Of a DNA stretch of 64,000 nt, positions 38,005 through 62,492 are shown piece by piece (the first letter of the stretch is position 1; every line of letters begins with the position of its first letter). This DNA is from Centroscyllium fabricii (Eukaryota). Where the stretch lies: positions 372,001 through 436,000 of the forward strand of contig JBNRSN020000194.1 of assembly GCA_051313645.2 (NCBI GenBank), read 5' to 3'. The position numbers and the translations under genes are program-made. Below the pieces are notes generated by a model, which saw only the letters and a list, made by a program, of their open reading frames with translations, had not been told where the DNA came from and did not search any database.

Positions 38005-39349
38005 GTTGGTTCAGTTGTATTATCTTAGATATTTTCCTTTGGAATCCTGCTCAAGATTGAAATAGTCAGCAATACCTGTGGTGGCAAAATCCATAATGGA
38101 GCATGTCCTGTGCCCCTTGCACAAGTGTCTGTTACAACACATTACTTATTGTGCTAAGATTTACTATAATTTATTAAAATAATTAATCTTTATGATATAT
38201 TAAGTCACACTGTCTAAATTATTCACAGCTAAATATGCATAGGTTATCACAGCAACATATTTTAATAATCAGAGTCATTGCTGCTTTTTAAATAATTCAT
38301 TCGTACTACATTTGCCGGCTATAATAATGCTTACTTTACATGAATGTACCATGAGAAATTAAATTAGCTCCAACCCAAATAAGGGCCACCGCAGTGTTTA
38401 TATTCTATTAAAACTGATTTACTTATGCCCTCCTAATGGCTAAGTGATTATCTAAAATTATCGTATTCTAGATACTGTAGATTTAAATCAATTTAGTGCA
38501 ATAATCATACAACACAGTAGTACAACTCTTAAACTATCAATAATAAGCAAACAATCTTTGTAACTATCTTCACTAATTGTAATTCCCCAATTCAATGAGA
38601 AACAAAAAGCAAACATCTGGTGAAATAATAATAAACGGTTGACCTAGCCAGTTTAAACTGTGAGATCATTTACTTTAGCAGTTCTATATGTGCTTATCTA
38701 ACTAAAGGTGCATTCCCACGCCATCTTTAGCGCCACTTCCCTCTTTGCAATGATGCTAAAGATGTTGTGCAAGCAAGGTCAATGGCAGATTGAATCGATT
38801 CCCAGACCCAACGCTCTAATCAATTCAAGTTTTATTGTCATTGCAGAGTACGAGTACAATATAACGAAACGAAGACTCACTGCTCCCGAGAGTAGTGCAA
38901 ATAAGTTACATACAATTTCATACAATAAAGTACATTTTCAGGTGTGCAGATACTGGAGATTTTTGTTAGAATTCAGGAGACTGACAGCCCTGGGGAAGAA
39001 GCTGTTCTTGAATCTGGTCGTGCGGGTGCGGATTGATCTGTAGCATCTCCCGGAGGGCAGGGGGGTGAACAGACTGTGGCTGGGGTGTGTGGGGTCTTTA
39101 ATAATGTTCAGAGTCCTCCGTAGGCAATGATTGAGGTAGGTGCATTCGATTGACGGTAGCTGGCTGCCGGTGATTCGTTGGGCAGTTTTGACTACCCACT
39201 GCAGGGCCGAGATGGTGCAGTTCCCATACCAGACTGTGATGCAATTTGTCAGTATGCTTTCGATTGTGCAGTGGTAGAAGTTGGAGAGGATGCCGGATGA
39301 AAGCTTGGCTTTTTTCAGCTTCCTTAGGAAGTACAGGCGCTGTTGGGCC

Positions 39350-40099
39350 GTTGGTCGGCGTCGGGCTCTGTTTCTTCGCTCCCGAGGTGCGGGAGCAGGA
39401 AGATCTCGGCAGGCTAAATTGGGCCGTTGGTTGCCGTCGGGCGCTGCTCCTTTGTTCCCGTGGTGCGGGAGCAGGAAGAGGTAGTCGGGCCTTTATCGGG
39501 CCGTTGGTCGGCGTCGAGCGCTGTTCCTTCTCTCCAGAGGTGTGGAAGGTAGAGGAGGTTGTCGGGCCTTCATCGGGCCGTTGTCATTGTCGGGCGTTGT
39601 CCCTTTGCTCCAGAGATGCGGGAGCATGAAGAACTCGTCGGGCGTGAATCGGGCCGTTGGTTGCAGGTGAACTCTTTCACTTTTCTTCCAGAAGACTCTA
39701 TGGGCATTCATGGAACAGTGGTCGGAGTTGGGGACTAGTTTTCTTCAATCCAGGAGCTGAGAAATTGGTTGGCCTGAGTGGTCTGCGGTCGGATGGATGG
39801 ATGGTTGGCGATCGGGTCGCCTTCTGCACTCCCTTAAACATTGATTAACTTGAACATTTATATATATTGAATTGGTTGAATAGCGTCGAATCTAGGAACC
39901 GGAGCACATGCGGACCCTCAACGATGGCGCCGGAAAAATGGCTTAACGTCTTGTGGGTTCTCACGTGCTGTGTGTCTTTGTTCTTTGTTGTTTAGTTGTA
40001 GTTGTTTGGTTGATACATAGTGCATGAAAACTGCAGTAAGCATTTCACCTTCTGAATTTGTTGTTTATTTTCAGTTGTGTGACAAATAAAATTTACTTA
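39350..40099 (+). mobile_element. Unclassified ~750-bp retroposon-like insert with 76-77-bp tandem repeats and an AATAAA-(TTAC)n tail
   Basis: Interrupts the Rex1 RT between ...SSLIK and AQQRL. GGGCCGTTG units start at 39345, 39421, 39498, 39575 and 39651; it ends GACAAATAAAATTTACTTAC. Confidence 0.65.
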
Positions 40100-45335: not shown

Positions 45336-45369
45336 TGCAGCGCCTGTATTGTTAAATTTGTCCTACACA

Positions 45370-45640
45370 AAGATGGCGGCGTCATGTGATGGGGCGGGCC
45401 CACTGCTGCTGGGATGCGGGCTGTCCTATACCAAGATGGTGGCATCACGTGGTGGGGCGTGGCCGCTGCTGCCGTGATGTAGGAAGATGACGGCGTCACA
45501 TGATGGGGCAGGGACTCTGCTGCCGGGATGCAGGCTGTCCTAGACCAAGATGGCGGTGTCACGTGATGGGGCATGGCCGCTGCTACCATGATGCAGGAAG
45601 ATGGCGGTGTCACATGATGGGGCGGGGCCTCTGCCACCAG
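45370..45640. repeat. Five-unit tandem repeat with alternating 63/51-bp spacing
   Basis: AAGATG(G/A)(C/T)GG..TCA(C/T)(G/A)TG.TGGGGC units at 45370, 45433, 45484, 45547 and 45598. Confidence 0.9.
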
Positions 45641-45760
45641 GAGGCCCGACGGCGCCCGTGTTTCACGCCATTCCGGGGAGGAAGAAGGCCGCACCCCCAA
45701 TGATGGTGGAGTGCGGGAAACGACGTTGGCAGGCCACATCCGAGGCAAGGTAGGTAGCAA

Positions 45761-49340: not shown

Positions 49341-49705
49341 GGAAAACACAGTGGTGCAGTGGTTAGCACTGCTGCCTCACAATAAGGAGCTCCTGGGTTT
49401 GAATCCTGCTTGGCCCGGAACCTCTCTGCGTGGAGTTTGCACGTTCTCCCCGTGTTCATGTGGGTTTCCTCCGGGTACTCCCACCACCCAAAGACATGCA
49501 GGTTAGGTGAATTGGAGATACTAAAAATTGCCCATGAGTATGTGTGTGAGATAGTTCTTAGAGTTGGGGGTGTCGGGGGATATGGGGAGAGGGTAGGAAG
49601 GGGATGCTGGGTTTGGATGATCAGCCATGATCTCATCAAAAAATGGCAGAGCAGGCTTGAAGGGCTGAATGGCCGACTCCTGCTCCTAGCTTCTGTGTTT
49701 CTGTG
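49341..49705 (+). mobile_element. HE1-type tRNA-derived V-SINE
   Basis: A box TGGTGCAGTGG, B box GGTTTGAATCC, V-domain GTGGAGTTTGCACGTTCTCCCCGTG...GGGTTTCCTCCGGG, HER1-type tail. Confidence 0.9.
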
Positions 49706-49979
49706 ATCACTCCTTAAGATCTATATAGTTCAAGGCTTCCTTTGTGTATAATCATATCCCCCTAAGGCTCCTCATTTGGTTCAGCTTCTTCACAGCCTCT
49801 CCATCTAAATCCCCTCATGAATTCTGCTCTCTTGTAATATATTTTTTGCCAATTGTTCCCATAAGCTCTTTTGATATCTCTTGTAATAAACCTGCAACAA
49901 TCATTGTATCTCCACCTTGAACTTTTTCTATTGTTACTGTAAGCGAGGAACATCTGGAAGGTAAAATAGAACTAACAGA

Positions 49980-51770
49980 TGTAAGGAGCGTGCGCCGTAT
50001 ATTTTACTGTACGACTTGGGGTCCGTTACTGCCTTGCGCTAGCAGTCCGCTAGGCCTCGCGCAATAACCTCCTCCCCCGCGAGCGGTTCGAATCGCTCAC
50101 TCTTTACGGTTCTAGACGCTGGACTTAGGTGCAGGAAGAGAGAGAGAGAGAGATGGATACCGATTGGACTCAGATATTTTATACTCGAATAAAAGTTTGT
50201 AAAGTTGGAAGGTTTTTATTACACCAAGAGATATATTTACAGCAGTAAGGATAAAGGTTTATTACACCAAGAGATATATTTACAGCAGTTAGGTTGTATT
50301 TCATCAGAGTGACACAGTATGACACATCAACAACTGTTTCCCAAACCGATACATATAGGTACATACACAGATAACTTATGGGATGGGGAACGCACGGCAC
50401 AACGTAAATCGGGGCAATGACTCTATGAATACACCCCAAATAAACCACCCTTCCCTCTATTGCCTAGCTATGTCCAGGTGTGTAGGATCGAGGCACATGC
50501 TCACCACTCGGTAATACTCGGGATCTGCTATGAAGTTCCTCGCTTCTTCGGCTGCAGCGTCGGTCGTCACGTGGCTGTGGAAGATTCGGGAGTCCACTTG
50601 TTGTTCTCTCCCTTTGGGCGGCGGTCGCTCCTGCTCGGGCTGGTCCCGGACGGATTCCTCGAGGCTGCTCTATCTCCTCGCACCAACCACACCGTCTCCC
50701 TGGCTGAACCGGACCCTGGGGTATGCCGATCCTGCCCTCTCAAGCCGAACTGTAACGGGCTGCTAGCCTAATCGTTCTCCCACTCTTCGAACGCTAGTTT
50801 ATTCTTAGTCAACTGCAACCAGCCTTTTCTAACTCACTCACTTTGAATGCTTTGCTTCGCTAATGGGCCTCAGCAACTAACTACCTCACCGGCAATGGTT
50901 TTCCGATGCGATACTGCCCTGACCCAACTCTGCTGTCCTGCCAGAGCCTTCACCCTGTTTGCCCTGCACCCAGAAAACTGAACTGGAGTCTTCGAAACAG
51001 AGAACCCACCCAAAGTCACTGCTAGACCTCACCGCTTCAAGAGGTCGCCTCCACGAGTCAAGAGAGAGAAATCCAAGAGCCTTCTCCAAGAGCTCACCGA
51101 TGAGAAGAGCTAAGAGCTCAGCGCTAAGAGTTCCAAGAGAGAGGAGTCTACCAGCGAGCCCTCTCCAGAGAGCCCACAGATGAGAAGAGATTTTCAAGAG
51201 ATCGAACTGTACAATGTCCTGCTAGTTATACCCCAAAGTCGAAATGCCTAATGTCTTTCCCATTAGGGCCTGTATTGTGTGTGGAAAGCAGTTACTGCAC
51301 TCCTTTTGTCCAGCCAAGCCTGCCGGTAATAGTTTTGATGGTGGCTCTAACTTCTCCGGTTAGAGTCCCATTGTTTTCAAGGGTGCTAATCGCTTTATGC
51401 TCGAAGGGTATACAATTTCTGTAGCTGGTTAAACGGGCCAGCTGCTTCGTATTTGCAGTTGTTTTGGGTGTTTATTTAAACTGGGTGCATTTCTTTGTCG
51501 GGCTAATCGGTTTCTAAAGGGCAGGCCATTTATTTACAGGTTTAACAGCGCCTTTATGTCTGGTTTCTTCGCGGGCTTTTCGAGTTGAGTTTTAGTTTCG
51601 GTTTTGCACTATGCCATGTGGTCCGGCGGCCATCTTGGAGGCCCCTTTTCTCTGATCAGGCCGCAGCCTGTCTTGTCTGTCATTGTCCAAATAAAAGAAA
51701 ATGTGTATACTCCATCCTTCGTTTCTGGTCTTTGTGAATCCGATTTAACAGGGAATATTGCGACCTTACA
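49980..51770 (-). repeat. 3' LTR (1791 bp)
   Basis: Matches 60698-62488 at offset 10718, with about 7 substitutions seen by eye. Confidence 0.98.
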
Positions 51771-51779
51771 GTCCCTCCT
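51771..51779 (-). promoter_or_regulatory. Short polypurine tract
   Basis: Minus strand AGGAGGGAC immediately precedes the TG of the 3' LTR. Confidence 0.65.
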
Positions 51780-52610
51780 GTTGATTAGCATAACCCTGCT
51801 TAGCGAATCAATTAAGAAAGGTTGAGCAAGATTCCCGATTCTCCACACCTCAACTCTCCTGGTTACCTAAATTAACTCTTGCCCCATGGCACATGTGGTT
51901 CCCATTCCCTTTGATCAACCTCGCATTGCCTTTACCCTGGGCAATCGTATATTTACACCACCATGTCTTACACCTCCTGGTTCCTTCCACGTCTGCCAGG
52001 CCGATGCCTTCGTCTCCACCTGTTTATATCATTCATTAACTCAAAAGGGACCTCACACAACCATCAGGAAAATATAAACACACACATTTCTCCCCTCATG
52101 AATCCCCCCATTTGTCCCCAAAGTTTGTACAGTGTTCTGGCGGTCTTCTGCAGCCACCACCATCGGCTCGCTGGGATCTTCCTATCCCTCAACGGAAGTA
52201 AGTCCTTTTACCGATGATAGCGCCGGTCCTGGGTGCGATGGTCTTGATCCGGGGCACATAAAACCAAGTCTCTCCACAAGCAGATTCCGACGTGCTGGGA
52301 TGCTCCATTGGGTCCGTTCCCAGCCGTCCGTACTCCCCGGTGTGGCCCCGGCAGGCCAGTCCATCTTTGATGCCCGCACACGTCATCAGAATCCCCGCCT
52401 CTCTGGGTTCTGTAATCAAACAAAGGGGTTGCCGGCCTCCCAAGAGCGCCTGGCTGTGGTGAGATGTGCACGCCTCCTGGACAGATCCCATATTACCTAA
52501 ACACTCCCCTTTACCTTTAACAAAAATTGAAACTTAATTCGGGCTACTCCCTTGACACTAACAAACTTATTTTTCATTATGTACAGTGCCGCCTCTCCCG
52601 GGCGGCCTAC

Positions 52611-55600
52611 CTATCCCCTGTCAGGGTCGTAGTGGGCCGCTCCCCGTGGCGGTGCCTTGCTGACCCTTCCCTTTGGTTCCCCGCAGCCTGTCGCTGCTTT
52701 TAATTCTCCGCAGCCTGGTGCTGCTTGTCGGGGGTGGATAATTATCCGTTTGCGGGGGCTTTTCCTGTTCCTGAGGGCATATGACGGTTCTGGCCAAGCT
52801 TTCCTGGGCGGGGGTACCCTTTCCGAACGACGGAGGGTGCCTTTAGGTACTGCTCCCTGGGCCGACGAACTGAGGACCGAGCCAGGTTGTGCTGCAGCCT
52901 GTGACTCCCTCACAGCTGCCAGCCCCAACCCCTCTCCCTCCAGCTTCGCTTCCCTGGAACCGAGAGCCCCCTGGTTCGACGACCTGAGGACCGGGCCAGG
53001 TCGTGCTACAGCCTGTGACCCCGTCACATCTGTCAGCATCGACGTTCCCTCCTCACGCCTCGTCGACGAACTGAAGGCCGGGCCGTATCGTGCTGCAGCC
53101 TGTGACTCCTTCACAGCTGCCAGCACCGACCCTCCCTCCTTCAGCTTCGCTTCCCCGGGACTGGGATCTCTTGCGGCTTCTGACCTCACCTCACCTATCT
53201 CCTCAGGTGGTGAGTCTCCGCCCGCTATCCCTACCTCGTCGGCATTTGAGTCGAGAACGGAACCCCCGTCCTCCGACCCCTCCTCCTCCCCTGTGATTGA
53301 CTCTAGCACTGGGTCGCATAGGTCAATCAGGTCCAACCCTTGGTCGGGTTGGCCACTCGGATCCAACACTTGGTCGTGTTGGTCCATCGGATCCAACACT
53401 TGGTCGTGTTGGTCCGGCTCCTCCCCATCTGAATCCCACACAGCACGAGAGACCCTCCTCTCCTCCATCGGGGCCTCTCCTTTCACGCAGGCTACTTTAC
53501 CACCTGCACTTGGCTGGGCGTTCCCACTCACAGGGCTTGCCCCTCTGGTCGACCCCTGCGTGCCCGACTTATACATTTTACATTGGTTTATATGGAACCA
53601 CTTTGTGCGTCGGGGCACCTTCACCGCATAAACCATGGGGCTTGCCTTATCTACAATGCTGTAGGGCCCCATGTACAGTGGCTCTAAACTCCCGACCCGG
53701 GCATAGTTCCTCACCATGACCAGGTCTCCCACTTCCCATTCTTGCGTTCTTCGGGGCTCCAGCAACAGCTTGTTCCCCTGATGCTGTCTGCCCATGTTCC
53801 CTGCTGCCTGCTCGTGTACTCGCTTTAGGTGCTCGAACAGATTTTGGGCAAACCTGTCCTTCTTTACCTCCTCGAGCTGTCCTTCCGTGAGCACCGGAGC
53901 TAGTACATGAGTGGGGGTACGCATGGCCCTTCCAGTCATTAGATCGTGCGGGGAATATCCCGTACTTTTCGACTGGCTGGCCCTGATCCCCATGAGGATT
54001 AAAGGCAGGATCTCCGCCCATTTCTGGGGCGAGCCCATCGCCTCTTTCCTCAACCGTTCCTTAAGGGTACGGTTCATGCGTTCCACAATTCCTGACGACT
54101 GGGGGTTGTGCGCTACGTGCCATTTTCCTTCAATGCCTAAGAGCATGAGGGTGTTCTGCATGACCTGGCCGGTGAAGTGACTCCCCTGGTCGGACTCCAC
54201 AAAACGGGGAAGTCCCCACCGTGAGAACACCTCCCGGACCAAAATCCTGGCAGTACCTAAGGCCGTAGCCGTCCTACAGGGGAAAGCTTCTACCCATTTG
54301 GAGAACACGTCCACCAGGACGAGACAATATTTATAGCCTCCCTGGGCGGTGGGTAAGGGCCCTATATAGTCGACTTGGATCGACTGCCACGGTCCCTCCA
54401 CCCTCCTGACGTGCCCCATCTGCGCTTTCCTTCTTTGGGGGTCTGGGTTGTTCGCAGCGCACACCAGGCAGCTAGCGCAGAACTCTCGGGCATCTTCCCT
54501 GAGTCCCGGCCACCACCCTGCCTGTTCCACCCGTTGCCAAGTAACCTCTGGCCCGGGGTGCCCTGCTCCTGGACCCTCGTGGGCCAATTGGAGAAATTCC
54601 ATCCTGTGCTGCTGTGGCACAACCCACTGTTCCTCCCTGAACAACATTCCTTCCTTAACGGAGAGGGTCGCCCTATTATATGGGCCCTCTACCTGCTTGT
54701 CCTCACTAATAGCTTTGAGGACAGCTTTTAAAACGGGATCCTGGTTTTGGACCGTTTTGAGATCCAAAGGCAAGGGAACCCTGGGGCGGTTCCCCTCCTT
54801 GTCCCGGATCGCTGCCACAGGTCCGGACCCGTAGGGGTCCCAGAAAGTGCCTTCACGAGCACCCTCCTTGGCCAGCGCATCCGCCCGCTGATTGCCTCCC
54901 CCACGTGGTTCCGTGGAAGAGTGAGCCTTCACCTTGTGGATGAAGATCTCCCCTTCTTCCCCTACTGCCGCTAGGATCTTCTCCAACAAGGGCTTTACCG
55001 TTAATGGCCGCCCGTCCGCGGAAGTGTACCCGCGACGTGACCATATGGCCAGATACTCCGTGCACGAGTTGCACGTAAACATACTATCAGAGCAAATTGT
55101 GTACGGGGTTGGGAAGATCTCGGGGTGGGTTACCACGTACGCCACCGCCGACAGCTCGGCCTGCTGCGCGCTCATGGTGCGGGGAAGCTTAACCGCCAAG
55201 GCAATGTCTGCCGTAGGGTCAAAAATCCCGCAGCCCGTGAGTCGTTCGCCAGCCACCACCGTGCTGGAACCATCAACATAGATCTCGCGGCCCGTGGGAT
55301 GTATCCCGGCTCGCAGACCTATGTTCACCTCCCATACCCCCTCCACGGAACACCGATGGGTCGTTCCGGGGTACATCAAATTTGCTGCGAGCTTAGGCTC
55401 GCACAAACCCTCCACTTTTAAATCCATTTGGGACAACAGAAGAGTCCAGCGCGCAATTCTCGCGCTGCTCACGGTCCCATCCTTTATCCTCCCATCCAGA
55501 AGCATCCTGGTGGGCGTGTGGTGGGTGAGGAGAGTAATGGGAGAGGTTCCCGTGAAGATTAATGATCTCTTCACGGCCCAATGCGTGGCTAAGAGATGCC

Positions 55601-57233
55601 GTTCGCAGTTGGAGAACCCCCTCTCTACCTCCGTGAGTACCCTTGAGGAATACACCACCGGTCGCAGCTTGCCGTGCCGCTCTTGGAGCAGCACCGCGCT
55701 CAAGCTGTCCTCGCCGGCTGCTACCTCCAGGGAAAACTCCTTCCCCCCCTCTATGGCCCCCAGGGCTGGCGCGGTTTGCAAGTCCCTTTTCAACTTTTCA
55801 AACGCCGCCTGGCAGCCCTCATCCCATGACCACCCAACTCCCTTATGTAAGAGTCGGAGCAGCGGAGCTTCTGTGGCTGCATAGTCCTCAATGAAGTCTC
55901 TGCAATAGCCGGTCAATCCCAAAAAGGACCTCACACCCTTTACGGTGGTCGGGATCGGTAGCTCCTGTACCGACTCCCTTCTGGCTTTATCTATGGCCCT
56001 TTCCCCCGCGCGGATGGTCAGACCCAGAAACTTTACTTCTGTCTGGCCAATCCGTGCCTTCTTCGGGTTTATTTTAAAACCCTTCCTAGCCAGTAATTCC
56101 AGCAGCTCGCCTAGCAATGGCAAGTGCTCATCCCTCGTGTCCGTGAACAGGAGTAAGTCGTCCACATAATGCACTATTTGATTGGGCTGACTAAACTCCT
56201 TTAAACTCCCTGCCATACACTGGTGGAAAATACTGGGGCTGTTGTGGAAGCCTTGCGGCAAACAATTCCACGTGTACTGCTGCCCTTTAAACGTAAAGGC
56301 AAACTTGTACTGATCCTCCCTCCGCAGCGGGATGGACCAAAACCCGTTGGAAATATCCAACACCGTAAACACCGTGGCGGAAGCGGGAATACTCCCGATC
56401 AGGTCGGCAACTGCTGCCACCGTGGGCGCGCAGGCGGGGATGTTACTGTTGAGGACCCGATAATCCACCGTGGCTCTCCATGAGTTGTCTGGCTTCCGTA
56501 CGGGCCACAACGGAGAGTTCACATGGGTGGCTATCGGCCTCAACACGCCCTGCCGCACCAGTGAAGACATCGCTGTCTCCAGATCGGACTCCGCTTCCTT
56601 AGGGAAGTTATACTGTTTCTGGGGTCGGGACATGGGATCCCCCTGTACGCTAACCTCAAACCCTAAGACCCTCCCGCAATCGTGCTTGTGGGTCGCAAAG
56701 GCGTTTATATTCCACGTTACGGCCGCCTGCATGTCGGCCGGAACCCCTTTGGACAAACTATCGAGGTCGTAACCTCCGGACGGCTTCATGGTGCATAGGG
56801 TCCCCTTTTCTTCTTCCTCCCCTATGACCACAACTTCACCTCTTCCACTTTCGGCTGCCCATAAACAGTGGTTCCTTAGGTCGATCATGATCCCGTGTGC
56901 TCCCAGAAAATCTGCTCCTACTATACCTCTGCCACCTCCTTCTTCCCATTTCAGTAGGATGCACTCCCAAGTGGTGTGGAGCGCTCCTAACTGAATGGAG
57001 AGTGGCCTAGAGCGCGCGCCCCCCTGTTCCTTGCCCGTAAACCCTGCTAATGCAAAAGGGACTCCGGTGGACATTGGGGAATTAAACGGCTTCTCTGTAT
57101 GGATCACGGTGCATGAGGCCCCCGTATCCAACAGATAATTCCCCTCCTGTCTCTCCACCTCCATTTCCACCAGAGGTCTCCTCCATGCATCATAACGGAG
57201 CGGACACAGGTAAATGGGCAGCGCGGGTCTTAG
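52611..57233 (-). CDS. pol: Pol polyprotein: protease, RT, tether, RNase H, integrase with GPY/F and a long C-terminal tail; in frame with gag
   Basis: LLDTGAS; NSPLWPVRKPD, LDISNGFW, LPQGFHNSP, YVDD (56157-56168); degenerate RH-like tether LEVAA...CERHLLA; RNase H YVDGS, AQQAEL, CSDS, KVKAHS, GNQRADALAK; IN HHCC, VDYIGP, SDQGSHF, GIVERMN, GPY. No stops from 57233 to the end. Confidence 0.95.
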   Translation of the reverse strand, partial: LRPALPIYLCPLRYDAWRRPLVEMEVERQEGNYLLDTGASCTVIHTEKPFNSPMSTGVPFALAGFTGKEQGGARSRPLSIQLGALHTTWECILLKWEEGGGRGIVGADFLGAHGIMIDLRNHCLWAAESGRGEVVVIGEEEEKGTLCTMKPSGGYDLDSLSKGVPADMQAAVTWNINAFATHKHDCGRVLGFEVSVQGDPMSRPQKQYNFPKEAESDLETAMSSLVRQGVLRPIATHVNSPLWPVRKPDNSWRATVDYRVLNSNIPACAPTVAAVADLIGSIPASATVFTVLDISNGFWSIPLRREDQYKFAFTFKGQQYTWNCLPQGFHNSPSIFHQCMAGSLKEFSQPNQIVHYVDDLLLFTDTRDEHLPLLGELLELLARKGFKINPKKARIGQTEVKFLGLTIRAGERAIDKARRESVQELPIPTTVKGVRSFLGLTGYCRDFIEDYAATEAPLLRLLHKGVGWSWDEGCQAAFEKLKRDLQTAPALGAIEGGKEFSLEVAAGEDSLSAVLLQERHGKLRPVVYSSRVLTEVERGFSNCERHLLATHWAVKRSLIFTGTSPITLLTHHTPTRMLLDGRIKDGTVSSARIARWTLLLSQMDLKVEGLCEPKLAANLMYPGTTHRCSVEGVWEVNIGLRAGIHPTGREIYVDGSSTVVAGERLTGCGIFDPTADIALAVKLPRTMSAQQAELSAVAYVVTHPEIFPTPYTICSDSMFTCNSCTEYLAIWSRRGYTSADGRPLTVKPLLEKILAAVGEEGEIFIHKVKAHSSTEPRGGGNQRADALAKEGAREGTFWDPYGSGPVAAIRDKEGNRPRVPLPLDLKTVQNQDPVLKAVLKAISEDKQVEGPYNRATLSVKEGMLFREEQWVVPQQHRMEFLQLAHEGPGAGHPGPEVTWQRVEQAGWWPGLREDAREFCASCLVCAANNPDPQRRKAQMGHVRRVEGPWQSIQVDYIGPLPTAQGGYKYCLVLVDVFSKWVEAFPCRTATALGTARILVREVFSRWGLPRFVESDQGSHFTGQVMQNTLMLLGIEGKWHVAHNPQSSGIVERMNRTLKERLRKEAMGSPQKWAEILPLILMGIRASQSKSTGYSPHDLMTGRAMRTPTHVLAPVLTEGQLEEVKKDRFAQNLFEHLKRVHEQAAGNMGRQHQGNKLLLEPRRTQEWEVGDLVMVRNYARVGSLEPLYMGPYSIVDKASPMVYAVKVPRRTKWFHINQCKMYKSGTQGSTRGASPVSGNAQPSAGGKVACVKGEAPMEERRVSRAVWDSDGEEPDQHDQVLDPMDQHDQVLDPSGQPDQGLDLIDLCDPVLESITGEEEGSEDGGSVLDSNADEVGIAGGDSPPEEIGEVRSEAARDPSPGEAKLKEGGSVLAAVKESQAAARYGPAFSSSTRREEGTSMLTDVTGSQAVARPGPVLRSSNQGALGSREAKLEGEGLGLAAVRESQAAAQPGSVLSSSAQGAVPKGTLRRSERVPPPRKAWPEPSYALRNRKSPRKRIIIHPRQAAPGCGELKAATGCGEPKGRVSKAPPRGAAHYDPDRG

Positions 57234-58751
57234 TCATTGGGTTTCCACGTGAGGGGCTGCGGTGCCTGCGGAACCGGTGGCCACCGCTGCCTTCCCCTGG
57301 GAAGTCATATACAACTTCATGGCCCCCAGCGTGGACTCAATCGTCTCGGGACTTAAGGTTGCCCCGGCACCTCCTGTGGGAGCGGGTGCTCGGGTTGGGG
57401 CTACCTTCCCCTGGGAAGTCATATAAAACTTCATGGCTTCCAGCATGGACTCAATTGTTTCGGGACTTAGAGTGGCGCCGGCACCTCCTGTGGGAGTGGG
57501 TGCTCGGGCTGGGGCTGCGGGAGCTCTTTCCTTGACCTCCCTCCACGGGGCTCTACAGTCTCTGCGCCAGTGACCTGCCTTCCCGCATCTGTGACATGTA
57601 GACTGCCCCGGGTTGCCCCCCTCCTGATACCACTCTCTCTGCGCTGGGGCGTTTGCGTTAGTCGCATACACCTTCCCCTTATCGCAGTGCATCACCGAAC
57701 TCCTTGTATTTTTATACCCAACCGTGAGTCGGTTGAGGACCGTCTCCTCTGTGGTTAGAGCATCGGTGGTGTCAAACCACACCTTCGCCTGCTCTCTAAC
57801 GGCGGGTAGGCTGTTGGCAACGATACACCGGAGCCACTGGGCTCTCCCGGCATCACGCAAAACAGCCCGTGCAGGTACATCTGGGCAGCTGCGCTGATAC
57901 ACAGGCCACAGCCTCCCGGCGAAAACCCGTGGGGGTTCTCCCTCCATCTGCACGGTCCTACCCAGCCTTACAAACGGACCTTCATCGTCCATCCCTAATA
58001 TTTCTAGGACCTCGTCCCGCAGGTCGTTATAACAATTCTCCCCCCTTTTGCTCTCGTCAGAGAGACACTGAAGGATAGAGCTATCCAACGAGAAAAGCAA
58101 CATCCTGGCTTGCTCCCCTTCGTCACAGCCGTTAATTGCTGCGGCCTGTTCGACCTCTCTAAAATGCAGGGACGGATCGCCTGCTGCGGACAGCTTCTTA
58201 AAATGCCCTATCATGCTCCTTATCTGTTGCGAGCTATGGGGCACTATAACCTCATTCAGGACGGGCCCGGGATCCCCAGCCGCAGTGTCGGGACCCCGCC
58301 TCGTCTCTCGAACCGGACACATGGGTGCCGGGTCTGGATTCCCCACTTTGGGAACCTTTGCCGCCACCTCCTCTCTGTCCCCTTTCTCCCATGCTTGCGT
58401 ATAGTGGGGTGATCGCGCGGGGAGCGCGGGGGCTGGTGCCTCCGGCGCCCTCCTCCTTAACTTTGGCTTCGGGGGTTCCTGAGCTACCTTTACCTCACCC
58501 ACCGATGGGTCGATGAGGCACACCAGACCATTTGACCTGTTCAGGGCCTCCCTGAGGTCCTGAATCTCCTTTAAACAGGCGCTATGATCGGCGTCCTCAT
58601 ATTTGGCCTCGAGGGACATTTTGTATGCTGCCCTCATCCCCAGTAAATCCTCCTCCTGTGCCTTCAATTGGCCACTTAGGCGGACGCACCTTTCCCTGAG
58701 CTTCCCTTCACTTGACATGGCCTCTACGACTTGTCTTTCTAGGAGCTCAAC
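57234..58751 (-). CDS. gag: Gag, C-terminal 505 aa (coiled coil, capsid-like region, CCHC knuckle)
   Basis: CHRCGKAGHWRRDC knuckle; lies upstream of pol; joins 60291-60695 in frame once the hAT insert is removed. Confidence 0.9.
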   Translation of the reverse strand, partial: VELLERQVVEAMSSEGKLRERCVRLSGQLKAQEEDLLGMRAAYKMSLEAKYEDADHSACLKEIQDLREALNRSNGLVCLIDPSVGEVKVAQEPPKPKLRRRAPEAPAPALPARSPHYTQAWEKGDREEVAAKVPKVGNPDPAPMCPVRETRRGPDTAAGDPGPVLNEVIVPHSSQQIRSMIGHFKKLSAAGDPSLHFREVEQAAAINGCDEGEQARMLLFSLDSSILQCLSDESKRGENCYNDLRDEVLEILGMDDEGPFVRLGRTVQMEGEPPRVFAGRLWPVYQRSCPDVPARAVLRDAGRAQWLRCIVANSLPAVREQAKVWFDTTDALTTEETVLNRLTVGYKNTRSSVMHCDKGKVYATNANAPAQREWYQEGGNPGQSTCHRCGKAGHWRRDCRAPWREVKERAPAAPARAPTPTGGAGATLSPETIESMLEAMKFYMTSQGKVAPTRAPAPTGGAGATLSPETIESTLGAMKLYMTSQGKAAVATGSAGTAAPHVETQ

Positions 58752-59010
58752 CCTAGCTTCAGTGTTGTCCGTGAGCGCGCTAAATGAGCGCGCGTTCACG
58801 AACGCGTTCACATTTTCGTGAACGCTGAACGAGCGCGCTCTTTCCCAGCAGCCTGAGCGAAAACGTGAGCGCCGCTCTGTTTGGAGTGAGTGAGCGGCGC
58901 TCTTCACGAGTCTGAATCGCTGCTGCTTGGGTCGGCGTCTCCAAGCCATCGGGACGGTAAGTGTCTGTCTCTGCACTGACTGCTCTGCGGGACTTTGCTT
59001 TGCAAAAAAA

Positions 59011-59610
59011 TCTCTCTCTCTCTCTCGGGGAGAGGAGAGAGAGACCGGCGGGCGGGGAGAGAGACGGGCGGGGAGGGGGGAGGGAGAGAGAGACGGACGG
59101 GCGGGCGGGGGGGGGGAGGGAGAGAGAGACGGGCGGGGGGGGGGGAGGGGGAGAGAGACGGGCGGGGGGGGGGAGGGGGAGAGAGACGGGCGGGGGGGGG
59201 GAGGGGGAGAGAGACGGGCGGGGGGGGGAGGGGGAGAGAGACGGGCGGGGGGGGGAGAGAGACGGGCGGGGGGGGGGAGAGAGACGGGCGGGGGGGGGGA
59301 GAGAGAGACGGGCGGGGGGGGGGAGAGAGAGACGGGCGGGGGGGGGGGGAGAGAGAGAGGGGGGGGGGAGGGGAGAGAGAGAGAGGGGGGGGGGAGGGAG
59401 AGAGAGAGACGGGGGGGTGAGAGAGAGACGGGGGGGGGTGAGAGAGAGAGAGGGGGGGGAGGAGAGAGAGAGAGGGGGAGGAGAGAGAGAGAGAGGGGGA
59501 GGAGAGAGAGGGGGGGAGGAGAGAGAGAGAGGGAGGGGGGGAGAGAGGGAGGGGGGGGAGAGAAACACGGGGGGGGGGAAGAGACAAGGGGGGGGTGTCT
59601 CTCTCTCTCT
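59011..59610. repeat. G/A-rich minisatellite (GAGAGACGGGCG+n)
   Basis: About 600 bp of G runs and GA dinucleotides bracketed by (TC)n tracts. Confidence 0.95.
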
Positions 59611-60004
59611 CATATTTAGAAAGATAGGAGCAGGAGTCGGCCATTCAGCCCTTTGAGCCTGCTCCACCATTCAATGAGACCATGGCTGATCATCCAAACC
59701 CTGTAACCCACCCCTGCCCTCTCCCCATTATCCCTCGATCCCTATCGAGCCTGCACTGACACATATCCCACCCTATTCCCATATATTCAATCCCCCTAAC
59801 ACTAAGGGTCAGTTTATCATGGCCAATCAACCTAACCCTGCACATCTTTGGACTGTGGGAGGAAACCGGAGCACCCGGAGGAAACCCACGCAGACACGGG
59901 GAGAATGTGCAAACTCCACACAGATAGTACCCAAGACTGGATTTGAACCCGGGTCTCCAGTGCTGTGAGACAGCAGTGCTAAGCACTGTGCCACCGTGCC
60001 GCCC
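59611..60004 (-). mobile_element. HE1-type V-SINE inside the hAT element
   Basis: Minus strand GGGCGGCACGGTGGCACAGTG A box, GGTTCAAATCC B box, V-domain and HER1-type tail. Confidence 0.92.
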
Positions 60005-60290
60005 TATATACTCAGCCTGTGTATATACATACAGACAGTTCTCTATATCGGATATTTGTTCCTCCTGCTTCATAATTTGCATTGAGGATGTTCTATTGAA
60101 AAATAATAGCTCGGGGCAGCGCATTAGAAGAAAAGGAAAAAAAAACGAACTTTGAACTAGTTCATTTTTGAGCTGCGAACTTAAGTTCAAAATTCAAAAT
60201 TATGAACTATGAACTTGAACTAGTTCATTTTAAAATGATTGAACTGAACTTTGAGCTAGCTCTTGTTAAGTGTGAACTTTCCCAACACTG

Positions 60291-60695
60291 CCTAGCTTCA
60301 TGGCGGTTGGTCTTCACCTGGCGCTCATTATTTAGAGCCTCTAGCGCGGTGATTAACCGCTGCCCCCCTGAGACCTTTTCCTCCACTTCTAGGACTAACC
60401 CTTTTATCTGCGCGGTCTGCGCCGCAATCACCTGGTCCGAAAGCTGGACCTGCCTTTTATAACACATAAGCCATACGGCTTTCTCTACGGCCTTTTTATG
60501 CCCCTTGCTACCCGTCCAACGGATAGCTGCATCCAGTGGGCGTTTGTCTGCCAACAGGTCCCCAATCCACTGCTTTGTTAAATTAACTTTGCTGAATACA
60601 TAATCAGCAATCCTTTCCTCCATTACGCTTCTTTTATTCAAAGCTGAGTCCAATAGATCTCTCTCCTGCTGCCAGCGTCCTTCCGCGGTCGCCAT
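60291..60695 (-). CDS. gag: Gag, N-terminal 135 aa
   Basis: ATG lies 2 nt downstream of the 5' LTR; the frame ends ...NRHEAR at the TSD and resumes VELLERQ at 58751. Confidence 0.85.
60677..60694 (-). promoter_or_regulatory. Primer-binding site, probably tRNA-Arg
   Basis: TGGCGACCGCGGAAGGAC 3 nt after the LTR; resembles the complement of the vertebrate tRNA-Arg(TCG) 3' end as recalled (TGGCGACCACGAAGGGAC), allowing G:U pairs. Confidence 0.7.
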
Positions 60696-60697
60696 TC

Positions 60698-62488
60698 TGT
60701 AAGGAGCGTGCGCCGTATATTTTACTGTACGACTTGGGGTCCGTTACTGCCTTGCGCTAGCAGTCCGCTAGGCCTCGCGCAATAACCTCCTCCCCCGCGA
60801 GCGGTTCGAATCGCTCACTCTTTACGGTTCTAGACGCTGGACTTAGGTGCAGGAAGAGAGAGAGAGAGAGATGGATACCGATTGGACTCAGATATTTTAT
60901 ACTCGAATAAAAGTTTGTAAAGTTGGAAGGTTTTTATTACACCAAGAGATATATTTACAGCAGTAAGGGTAAAGGTTTATTACACCAAGAGATATATTTA
61001 CAGCAGTTAGGTTGTATTTCATCAGAGTGACACAGTATGACACATCAACAACTGTTTCCCAAACAGATACATATAGGTACATACACAGATAACTTATGGG
61101 ATGGGGAACGCACGGCACAACGTAAATCGGGGCAATGACTCTATGAATACACCCCAAATAAACCACCCTTCCCTCTATTGCCTAGTTTTGTCCAGGTGTG
61201 TAGGATCGAGGCACATGCTCACCACTCGGTAATACTCGGGATCTGCTACGAAGTTCCTCGCTTCTTCGGCTGCAGCGTCGGTCATCACGTGGCTGTGGAA
61301 GATTCGGGAGTCCACTTGTTGTTCTCTCCCTTTGGGCGGCGGTCGCTCCTGCTCGGGCTGGTCCCGGACGGATTCCTCGAGGCTGCTCTATCTCCTCGCA
61401 CCAACCACACCGTCTCCCTGGCTGAACCGGACCCTGGGGTATGCCGATCCTGCCCTCTCAAGCCGAACTGTAACGGGCTGCTAGCCTAATCGTTCTCCCA
61501 CTCTTCGAACGCTAGTTTATTCTTAGTCAACTGCAACCAGCCTTTTCTAACTCACTCACTTTGAATGCTTTGCTTCGCTAATGGGCCTCAGCAACTAACT
61601 ACCTCACCGGCAATGGTTTTCCGATGCGATACTGCCCTGACCCAACTCTGCTGTCCTGCCAGAGCCTTCACCCTGTTTGCCCTGCACCCAGAAAACTGAA
61701 CTGGAGTCTTCGAAACAGAGAACCCACCCAAAGTCACTGCTAGACCTCACCGCTTCAAGAGGTCGCCTCCACGAGTCAAGAGAGAGAAATCCAAGAGCCT
61801 TCTCCAAGAGCTCACCGATGAGAAGAGCTAAGAGCTCAGCGCTAAGAGTTCCAAGAGAGAGGAGTCTACCAGCGAGCCCTCTCCAGAGAGCCCACAGATG
61901 AGAAGAGATTTTCAAGAGATCGAACTGTACAATGTCCTGCTAGTTATACCCCAAAGTCGAAATGCCTAATGTCTTTCCCATTAGGGCCTGTATTGTGTGT
62001 GGAAAGCAGTTACTGCACTCCTTTTGTCCAGCCAAGCCTGCCGGTAATAGTTTTGATGGTGGCTCTAACTTCTCCGGTTAGAGTCCCATTGTTTTCAAGG
62101 GTGCTAATCGCTTTATGCTCGAAGGGTATACAATTTCTGTAGCTGGTTAAACGGGCCAGCTGCTTCGTATTTGCAGTTGTTTTGGGTGTTTATTTAAACT
62201 GGGTGCATTTCTTTGTCGGGCTAATCGGTTTCTAAAGGGCAGGCCATTTATTTACAGGTTTAACAGCGCCTTTATGTCTGGTTTCTTCGCGGGCTTTTCG
62301 AGTTGAGTTTTAGTTTCGGTTTTGCACTATGCCATGTGGTCCGGCGGCCATCTTGGAGGCCCCTTTTCTCTGATCAGGCCGCAGCCTGTCTTGTCTGTCA
62401 TTGTCCAAATAAAAGAAAATGTGTATACTCCATCCTTCGTTTCTAGTCTTTGTGAATCCGATTTAACAGGGAATATTGCGACCTTACA
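60698..62488 (-). repeat. 5' LTR (1791 bp)
   Basis: Near-identical to 49980-51770; minus-strand TATAA at 61944-61948 and AATAAA at 61516-61521. Confidence 0.98.
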
Positions 62489-62492
62489 CAGA

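Follow-up and report, generated by a model that had tools for sequence, protein, structure and literature searches.

The described systems with which the provirus at positions 49980-62488 (minus strand) of a 64-kb stretch of DNA (the window, meaning the whole stretch that was analysed) is compared here are the endogenous retroviruses (ERVs) related to snakehead retrovirus (SnRV), the lokiretroviruses (loki), the Odin elements and the foamy viruses. SnRV-like ERVs have been described in a chimaera as elephant-shark CmiERV lineage I (Han 2015, PMC4422223), and members of clade Huo occur in every group of vertebrates (Xu et al. 2018, PMC6001957, in part; here and below, "in part" marks a source cited from the portions available). 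An env-less SnRV-like element has been reported from a frog transcriptome (PMC4131045, in part), and a GPY module and a zinc knuckle have been noted for some SnRV/Ovex1-related ERVs (PMC4299795, in part). Lokiretroviruses are unreported from Chondrichthyes, with three Orectolobiformes screened and none found (PMC7947760 supplement, in part); an F-like envelope protein (Env) then seemed confined to loki, and four scenarios for the origin of the retroviral Env were left open (Wang and Han 2021, PMC7947760, in part). The Env of foamy viruses is related in fold to the F protein of paramyxoviruses and pneumoviruses (PMC11468914, in part).

The provirus in the window is very probably a young ERV copy, interrupted in gag, with a reverse transcriptase (RT) of canonical retroviral type that likely belongs to the SnRV side, and with most of a loki-related, likely F-type env deleted; its lineage has likely since spread within germ cells. 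An initial annotation of the window had described a young, env-less, lokiretrovirus/Odin-like element.

Secondary loss of env by deletion

The distance from pol to the 3' long terminal repeat (LTR) is 840 bp, and this spacer holds no functional env, as the initial annotation stated, but it does hold a frameshifted remnant of the 5' part of one. Two stretches of the spacer are similar to the env-bearing copy L035:

51771-52029, minus strand: 3' untranslated region, homologous to the DNA that follows env in env-bearing copies (blastn 74% to L035, E 1.7e-36)
52130-52420, minus strand: frameshifted remnant of the 5' part of env (blastn 68-73% against the beginning of the L035 env; tblastn between two sequences, E 0.001-0.002)

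Between the env-start similarity and the post-env similarity, at about 52030-52130, some 2.1 kb of env is absent. The remnant itself sets the direction of change as loss. A tree of copies comprises 46 natural copies (the window copy and 45 loci), is built from 461 nt of RNase H-integrase DNA and is rooted on a sister family; copies without that stretch, 15 of the 20 near-identical spacer-matched copies, L028, L041 and distant families were omitted. All 37 copies with env deleted fall into a single clade (100/99), which is nested within the 9 env-full copies, and along the ladder of the tree the recognisable env falls from 388 to 0 residues, part of this shrinkage being similarity lost after frameshifts. 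Env is lacking in all 30 close copies (the 10 closest RT matches and 20 fetched of the 40 scored spacer matches), and among 20 more divergent RT matches, 7 have an env-size frame after pol (one seen at its start only), 7 have a remnant, and the remaining 6, interrupted by other elements, are uninformative. The loss of env in this lineage is secondary and occurred by deletion, and the env-less state is not ancestral; the idea of an env-less lineage at the boundary between retrotransposons and retroviruses, put forward in the initial annotation, has to be given up, as relatives carry env and this lineage deleted it.

The amplification of the window's family is recent. In a host genome of 7.2 Gb, a query with the 3' spacer gave 727 candidates, and 40 of the 40 scored are 99-100% identical; copy counts for this family are lower bounds. 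The gag and pol frames are uninterrupted in 10 of the 20 fetched spacer-matched copies, sibling LTR pairs are 95.4-100% identical (9 resolved of 10), and an exact 4-bp duplication is present at 7 of 8 resolved sibling ends. Near-identical copies and high LTR-pair identity bear out the earlier description of the family as young and recently active, and the guess of a shark-like host is supported by named Env homologues from a skate (Rhinoraja longicauda, 79%) and a sawshark (Pristiophorus japonicus, 60%, partial), by which the host is likely an elasmobranch. In sequencing runs X2 and X4, the summed depth on the element is about a thousand-fold that of the flank, which is not a copy number; in run X6, which carries another organism code, 29 of 30 element bins are covered, and the env-deleted spacer lies within one 1348-bp contig.

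The env-bearing sister family is also young and abundant. A query with its Env gave 9004 candidates, among which all 91 scored copies are 98-100% identical and 90 are without a stop, and with a shorter Env query 150 of 150 scored copies are 97-100% identical. The LTR pairs of this family are 96.9-99.97% identical in 8 resolved of 10; among the 10 fetched copies (L097-L116), 7 carry gag and env without RT and integrase (IN), and 3 have pol. Its RT is sister to that of the window (100/100). The two families stand at a synonymous divergence (dS) of about 1.1, their LTRs are largely unalignable, and both have a tRNA-Arg primer site, the same polypurine tract and the same LTR termini. One sister-family copy is nested within a copy of the window's family (L111/L112).

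More distant retrovirus-like Pol families occur in the same genome (L118, L119, L157-L167; 31-38% to the window Pol). Among such distant copies an Env-like piece is present (short in L119; 71 residues, E 8.7e-8, in a copy with 37% in Pol). A genome search for divergent Env families was dominated by matches to the main family. The sawshark protein P0379, annotated as "Niban 1-like", is 60% identical to the family Env over its first ~230 residues, and is either a chimeric gene model or an exonised piece of env.

Placement of the reverse transcriptase and type of the envelope

The presence of a tether and a second RNase H is common to all retroviruses and is therefore not diagnostic of loki. In a published RT alignment (PMC9040795, in part), the loki and Odin rows share, by eye, the motifs SRWPM and PFGYxNSPxxFNIFLHK; the window RT has neither, and by eye carries PT..LPQGFHNSPSIFHQ like the SnRV row. 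Three RT trees (a quick tree of 56 rows, one of 44 rows with 12 redundant or long rows dropped, and one of 43 rows) place the window inside the canonical retroviruses (98, 100/99 and 100/99), and the approximately unbiased (AU) test rejects a grouping of the window with loki both with 3 loki rows (p=0.0009) and with 7 (p=0.00046). With the 7 loki rows, the window falls into a clade (98/99) that also holds Pols from frog and coelacanth and some unnamed ones; its RT is 43-46% identical to the frog and coelacanth "NYNRIN-like" Pols and 35% identical to SnRV over RT-RNase H. The SnRV reference is protein P0008, which agrees with the published SnRV row in the printed stretches; the loki references are signature-bearing proteins (P0248 and P0330 lie near the published rows by eye) and the elements L137 and L138, which have Env; the labels of the epsilon, gamma, ERV-L and ERV-S rows are motif-based assignments made here. 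By the position of its RT within the canonical clade and the gag-pol-env plan of its family, the window element belongs to the canonical Retroviridae.

The initial judgement that this is a retrovirus rather than a Gypsy element is confirmed, as dual RNase H and the RT tree speak against Ty3/Gypsy membership, whereas the lokiretrovirus/Odin-like label does not stand: loki membership by RT is rejected by the missing signature and the AU test, and Odin membership by the same missing signature (by eye) and by the env once present in the lineage. Membership in class I (epsilon/gamma) was likewise rejected, the class I rows forming a 98/97 clade that excludes the window and the Env frames of 5 loci showing no CX6CC motif. 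Scores of the window against PDB entries (murine leukaemia virus 232 bits, foamy virus 209) do not decide between the two. A loki-type integrase was hinted at by the IN-core scores and by the IN core tree, in which loki is joined to the frog and coelacanth relatives at 97/93 and the window itself is unplaced, but was not upheld by a longer IN tree, which separates loki at 95/97 (CGIN1 stands outside the IN trees). A lower-bound search of the host genome found no clear true loki (best matches 42-46% in RT and 30-35% over longer Pol), and no loki elements were found in the viral contigs searched.

The Env of the family has a furin-type site (RxKR/RxRR), heptad-like stretches, a cysteine-rich region and one transmembrane (TM) helix, and by eye shares ordered motifs with published loki Envs (PMC7947760 supplement, in part). 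Comparison of four family Envs with two loki Envs gives z scores of 4.9-11.5 in 8 of 8 pairs; the homologous span is about 390 residues, and the best alignment has 411 columns and 84 identities, with the furin sites in register. With BLOSUM45, the scores against loki are 147 and 129, compared with a background of 55.6±7.1 from 367 unrelated proteins, none of which exceeds 87. Taken by itself, the beta/Cys-rich part reaches a score matched by 0 of 500 shuffles, and the fusion-peptide/heptad part by 4 of 500. Homology of the family Env to the loki Env is supported by these pairwise statistics, so that the loki link drawn earlier fails for RT and holds for the deleted env. Two natural loki Envs match PF00523, the paramyxovirus F family (E 1.1e-5 and 2.1e-3, short of the curated cut-off), and through loki the family Env is likely of F type. 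No relatives of this Env were found in metagenome and viral contigs. Between subfamilies, the ratio of nonsynonymous to synonymous change (dN/dS) is 0.08 for pol and 0.12-0.13 for env, which indicates that env has been under purifying selection.

Several results count against the placement near SnRV and against the loki-related, F-type Env. In Pol, the link between SnRV and the window has a support of 87 by the approximate likelihood ratio test (SH-aLRT) in the quick RT tree and is left as an open node by the two careful ones; SnRV stands beside ERV-L/S, apart from the window, in the IN trees, and neither these nor the RNase H tree, which lacks resolution, join the two. The phmmer scores of the tether and the IN core are higher for loki than for SnRV, and the RT, IN and RNase H trees contain no foamy, Odin or class II rows. 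In Env, identity to loki is about 20%, searches of Pfam and PDB (phmmer, hmmsearch) gave no meaningful match, one of the eight pairs is not above its best shuffle, and the pre-furin part alone is not significant (35 of 500 shuffles). An hhalign comparison of the family and loki Envs, from shallow alignments, gave E 0.047 and a probability of 1.1%. AlphaFold models of two natural Env frames have predicted local distance difference test (pLDDT) values of 30.2 and 29.2, and a Foldseek search with them, models too poor to inform, returned nothing at E<=0.001.

Anatomy of the provirus and its proposed history

The remaining features of the provirus are as follows:

49976-49979: target-site duplication CAGA, left copy
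49980-51770, minus strand: 3' LTR, 1791 bp, 7 mismatches against the 5' LTR
51771-51781, minus strand: short polypurine tract adjoining the 3' LTR, the motif also being present in siblings and the sister family
52611-57233, minus strand: pol, open, 1540 codons, with protease, RT, tether, RNase H, IN, GPY module and a low-complexity repeat tail of ~300 residues
53571-53726, minus strand: GPY/SH3 module of the integrase (weak SH3/GPY match)
53571-54620, minus strand: integrase (Integrase_H2C2, rve), with the HHCC finger at 54444-54620 and the D,D(35)E core at 53919-54392
54858-55286, minus strand: second RNase H with D-E-D-D residues (PF00075 E 4.3e-19; motifs)
55428-55868, minus strand: tether, a degenerate first RNase H (PF17919/PF17917; RT_RNaseH/_2 5e-19)
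55869-56621, minus strand: RT of canonical-retrovirus type, by alignment and trees (RVT_1 2.5e-35)
56901-57185, minus strand: putative aspartic protease by its DTG motif (Pfam RVP E 1.7e-3, short of the cut-off)
57234-57236, minus strand: gag stop TGA in CAA-TGA-CTA, in frame with pol
57237-58759, minus strand: 3' part of gag, with one CCHC knuckle and a 114-bp tandem duplication
58760-60290: secondary insertion of 1531 bp, with terminal inverted repeats CAGTGTTG and an 8-bp duplication AAGCTAGG
60291-60695, minus strand: 5' part of gag, its ATG (60695-60693) overlapping the primer site
60677-60694, minus strand: primer-binding site complementary to tRNA-Arg(UCG), overlapping the gag ATG
60698-62488, minus strand: 5' LTR, 1791 bp
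62489-62492: target-site duplication CAGA, right copy

The two LTRs differ at 7 of 1791 bp (0.39%) with zero gaps and have the ends TGTAAGG..CCTTACA, and CAGA flanks both ends of the provirus; the LTR length and divergence and the 4-bp target-site duplication had thus been read correctly in the initial annotation. From the LTR divergence, the insertion is about 0.9 to 9 million years old at the borrowed rates of 2.2e-9 and 2.2e-10 per site per year, which may not be those of the host (PMC7947760, in part; PMC4422223).

The motifs of Pol are intact (LPQGFHNSP, YVDD, D-E-D-D of RNase H, HHCC, D,D(35)E and GPY), in agreement with the open pol, retroviral RT motifs, tether plus second RNase H and GPY integrase noted earlier. 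The first acidic motif of the tether reads LEVAAG, a position at which Gypsy RNase H has an aspartate. The Pol tail (52611-53570) is a low-complexity stretch of ~300 residues containing repeats of 30 bp and 87 bp, and differs in length between copies with the frame kept open. A 933-bp integrase deletion (equivalent to window 53593-54526) is common to six dispersed copies (L001, L003, L007, L015, L050 and L059), of which 4 are among the 10 closest RT matches and 2 among the 20 spacer-matched copies; one carrier has identical LTRs, and the joint of the deletion is also present in runs X2 and X6. These copies are an integrase-defective sublineage that spreads in trans.

A profile search found the single CCHC knuckle reported earlier for Gag, and against PDB the knuckle alone was matched, with no capsid match. 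The initial annotation missed the interruption of gag by the 1531-bp element, which we take to be hAT-like by class, and because of which the window copy is unable to make full Gag. The element contains a SINE-like stretch at about 59620-60010 and a CT-rich repeat at about 59020-59600, and is missing from 30 of 30 close copies (10 of the 10 closest RT matches and 20 of the 20 spacer-matched copies); the gag of the window copy would have been broken after integration. A SINE-like repeat at 49347-49692, in the opposite orientation, is 73-90% similar to the SINE-like stretch of the insertion. The context of the gag TGA is kept in 10 of 10 siblings; UGA stop codons are known to be leaky in certain contexts, and this TGA is likely a site of readthrough. 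The tRNA-Arg complementary pattern has 96 matches in the genome, versus 0 for a control; of 6 matched loci examined with ARAGORN, one was called tRNA-Arg(TCG), two had an unclear anticodon and three gave no call. On contigs C811 (of G000) and C922, the 3' pattern of tRNA-Arg is matched repeatedly in long clusters, with a spacing of ~1.9 kb in many cases.

In the proposed history, an infectious ancestor with an F-type Env would have entered the germ line, and one branch would have deleted env and continued by intracellular copying with Gag and a readthrough Gag-Pol. The full-length RNA would be driven by the 5' LTR, Gag would be initiated at the ATG that overlaps the tRNA-Arg primer site, and Gag-Pol would arise by reading through the in-frame UGA. 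The RNA would then be copied by the RT with its tether and second RNase H and inserted by the integrase with a 4-bp duplication, which is observed at the window copy, while defective derivatives would be mobilised in trans; the window copy would have integrated and then been hit in gag. That the spread was intracellular is something we infer.

Elsewhere in the window, positions 1-36056 hold a 29-bp satellite array of ~1245 copies with 82% matches and a strong strand skew, and GC-rich tandem repeats lie at 39345-39661 (76/153-bp periods) and 45359-45648 (51/63/114-bp periods).

Alternative explanations and comparison with known systems

Beyond the locus itself, an F-type Env, common to lokiretroviruses and foamy viruses, may have been ancestral to retroviruses and kept by a deep canonical branch that lives on in sharks and rays and has relatives in frog and coelacanth, the gamma-type Env of orthoretroviruses being a later replacement; the branch would now be in ongoing expansion, as an env-eroding gag-pol family and a mostly pol-less gag-env family. 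This wider view is put forward tentatively, at somewhat less than an even chance. The competing account of an old recombinant, in which a canonical retrovirus took its env from a lokiretrovirus, would make the F-like env uninformative on the ancestral state and leave the anatomy unaffected; it is a serious possibility, if a rather doubtful one. RT and Env do point to different relatives, and domain swapping has been described for these viruses (PMC7947760, in part), but Env is ~20% identical to loki versus ~33% for Pol, which argues against a recent swap, the family Env has ~270 extra N-terminal residues, and the lower-bound search of the host genome found no clear loki.

Mutual complementation, by which the env-deleted family would be packaged with the Env of the sister family and the pol-less sister copies would borrow its Pol, is unlikely as a general explanation, although cross-packaging between the two families is possible. 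The 7 of 10 sister copies without RT and IN have young LTR pairs and must therefore be mobilised in trans, the primer site, polypurine tract and LTR termini are common to both families, and 90 of 91 copies have an uninterrupted env; however, the 3 of 10 sister copies with their own pol would suffice for the pol-less ones, the families are separated by a dS of ~1.1 with LTRs that largely do not align, and copies this young would have an open env even without selection. It is more improbable that the family Env is of another type and came to resemble the loki Env by convergence in features of class I fusion, namely the furin site, heptads and cysteines: the empty Pfam and PDB searches, the hhalign E value and the low-confidence folds would fit such convergence, but the alignment is one collinear stretch of 411 columns in which the furin sites coincide, the non-helical part scores by itself, and 367 real proteins score far lower. 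The view that the element is of loki/Odin type, stands at the boundary between retrotransposons and retroviruses and never had an env is scarcely credible, for in spite of the dual RNase H, the tether and IN-core scores that favour loki over SnRV and the one IN tree that joined loki with the frog and coelacanth relatives, it is refuted in its env-less premise by the env remnant, and it is opposed by the basal position of env-full relatives, the missing RT signature, the AU test, the longer IN tree and the lack of Gag similarity to two loki Gags, which are without CCHC.

The preferred reading, a canonical-type ERV that deleted a loki-related env, may be set beside the known systems as follows. 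With SnRV-like ERVs and clade Huo, the window shares RT motifs, dual RNase H and an open node at the base of the sampled canonical retroviruses; it differs in that SnRV, at 35% over RT-RNase H, is not a supported sister, the nearer kin being the frog and coelacanth Pols, and a loki-type Env is not described for clade Huo in the portions of the literature consulted. With lokiretroviruses (Wang and Han 2021, PMC7947760, in part), it shares tether and RNase H, and over ~390 residues the family Env runs parallel to that of loki, from the furin site through heptads and beta/Cys-rich region to the TM; in contrast, the window RT lies outside the loki clade without its signature, the CCHC Gag is unrelated to the two loki Gags, and the family Env is ~270 residues longer at its N terminus. 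Odin elements (Wang and Han 2022, PMC9040795, in part) are alike in dual RNase H, absence of a functional env and young copies. The Odin RT, however, carries the loki-type signature, and the window lineage had an env and deleted it. Env-less ERV "superspreaders", reportedly described by Magiorkinis and colleagues in 2012, are said to have lost env and then reached high copy number; here, by contrast, the sister family that keeps env is very abundant as well. The in-frame gag-stop-pol arrangement, the CCHC knuckle and the tRNA-Arg primer of the window differ from the features of foamy viruses. Foamy viruses are also, by the portions of the fold study available, retroviruses with an F-related Env, the F type of the present family being probable through loki.

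A third lineage, with a canonical RT and a loki-related Env, makes the origin of Env testable by comparing Env and RT trees, and, if the family Env is of F type, is relevant to the question of what kind of envelope the earliest retroviruses had. Because it has no Pfam match here, such an Env could escape ERV screens in which a retroviral Env has to be recognised (PMC4422223; PMC10435555, in part). In this genome the loss of env is also recorded in fine gradation, and its many near-identical copies could serve to date it. The literature searched, most subscription journals and Repbase lying outside its reach, contained no account of a loki-type Env combined with an RT of the SnRV side. With its env deleted and its gag broken, the window copy is in itself ordinary, and env loss and SnRV-like shark ERVs were already known; what sets the family apart is its pairing of a canonical RT with a loki-related Env, the stepwise loss of env and the size of the family.

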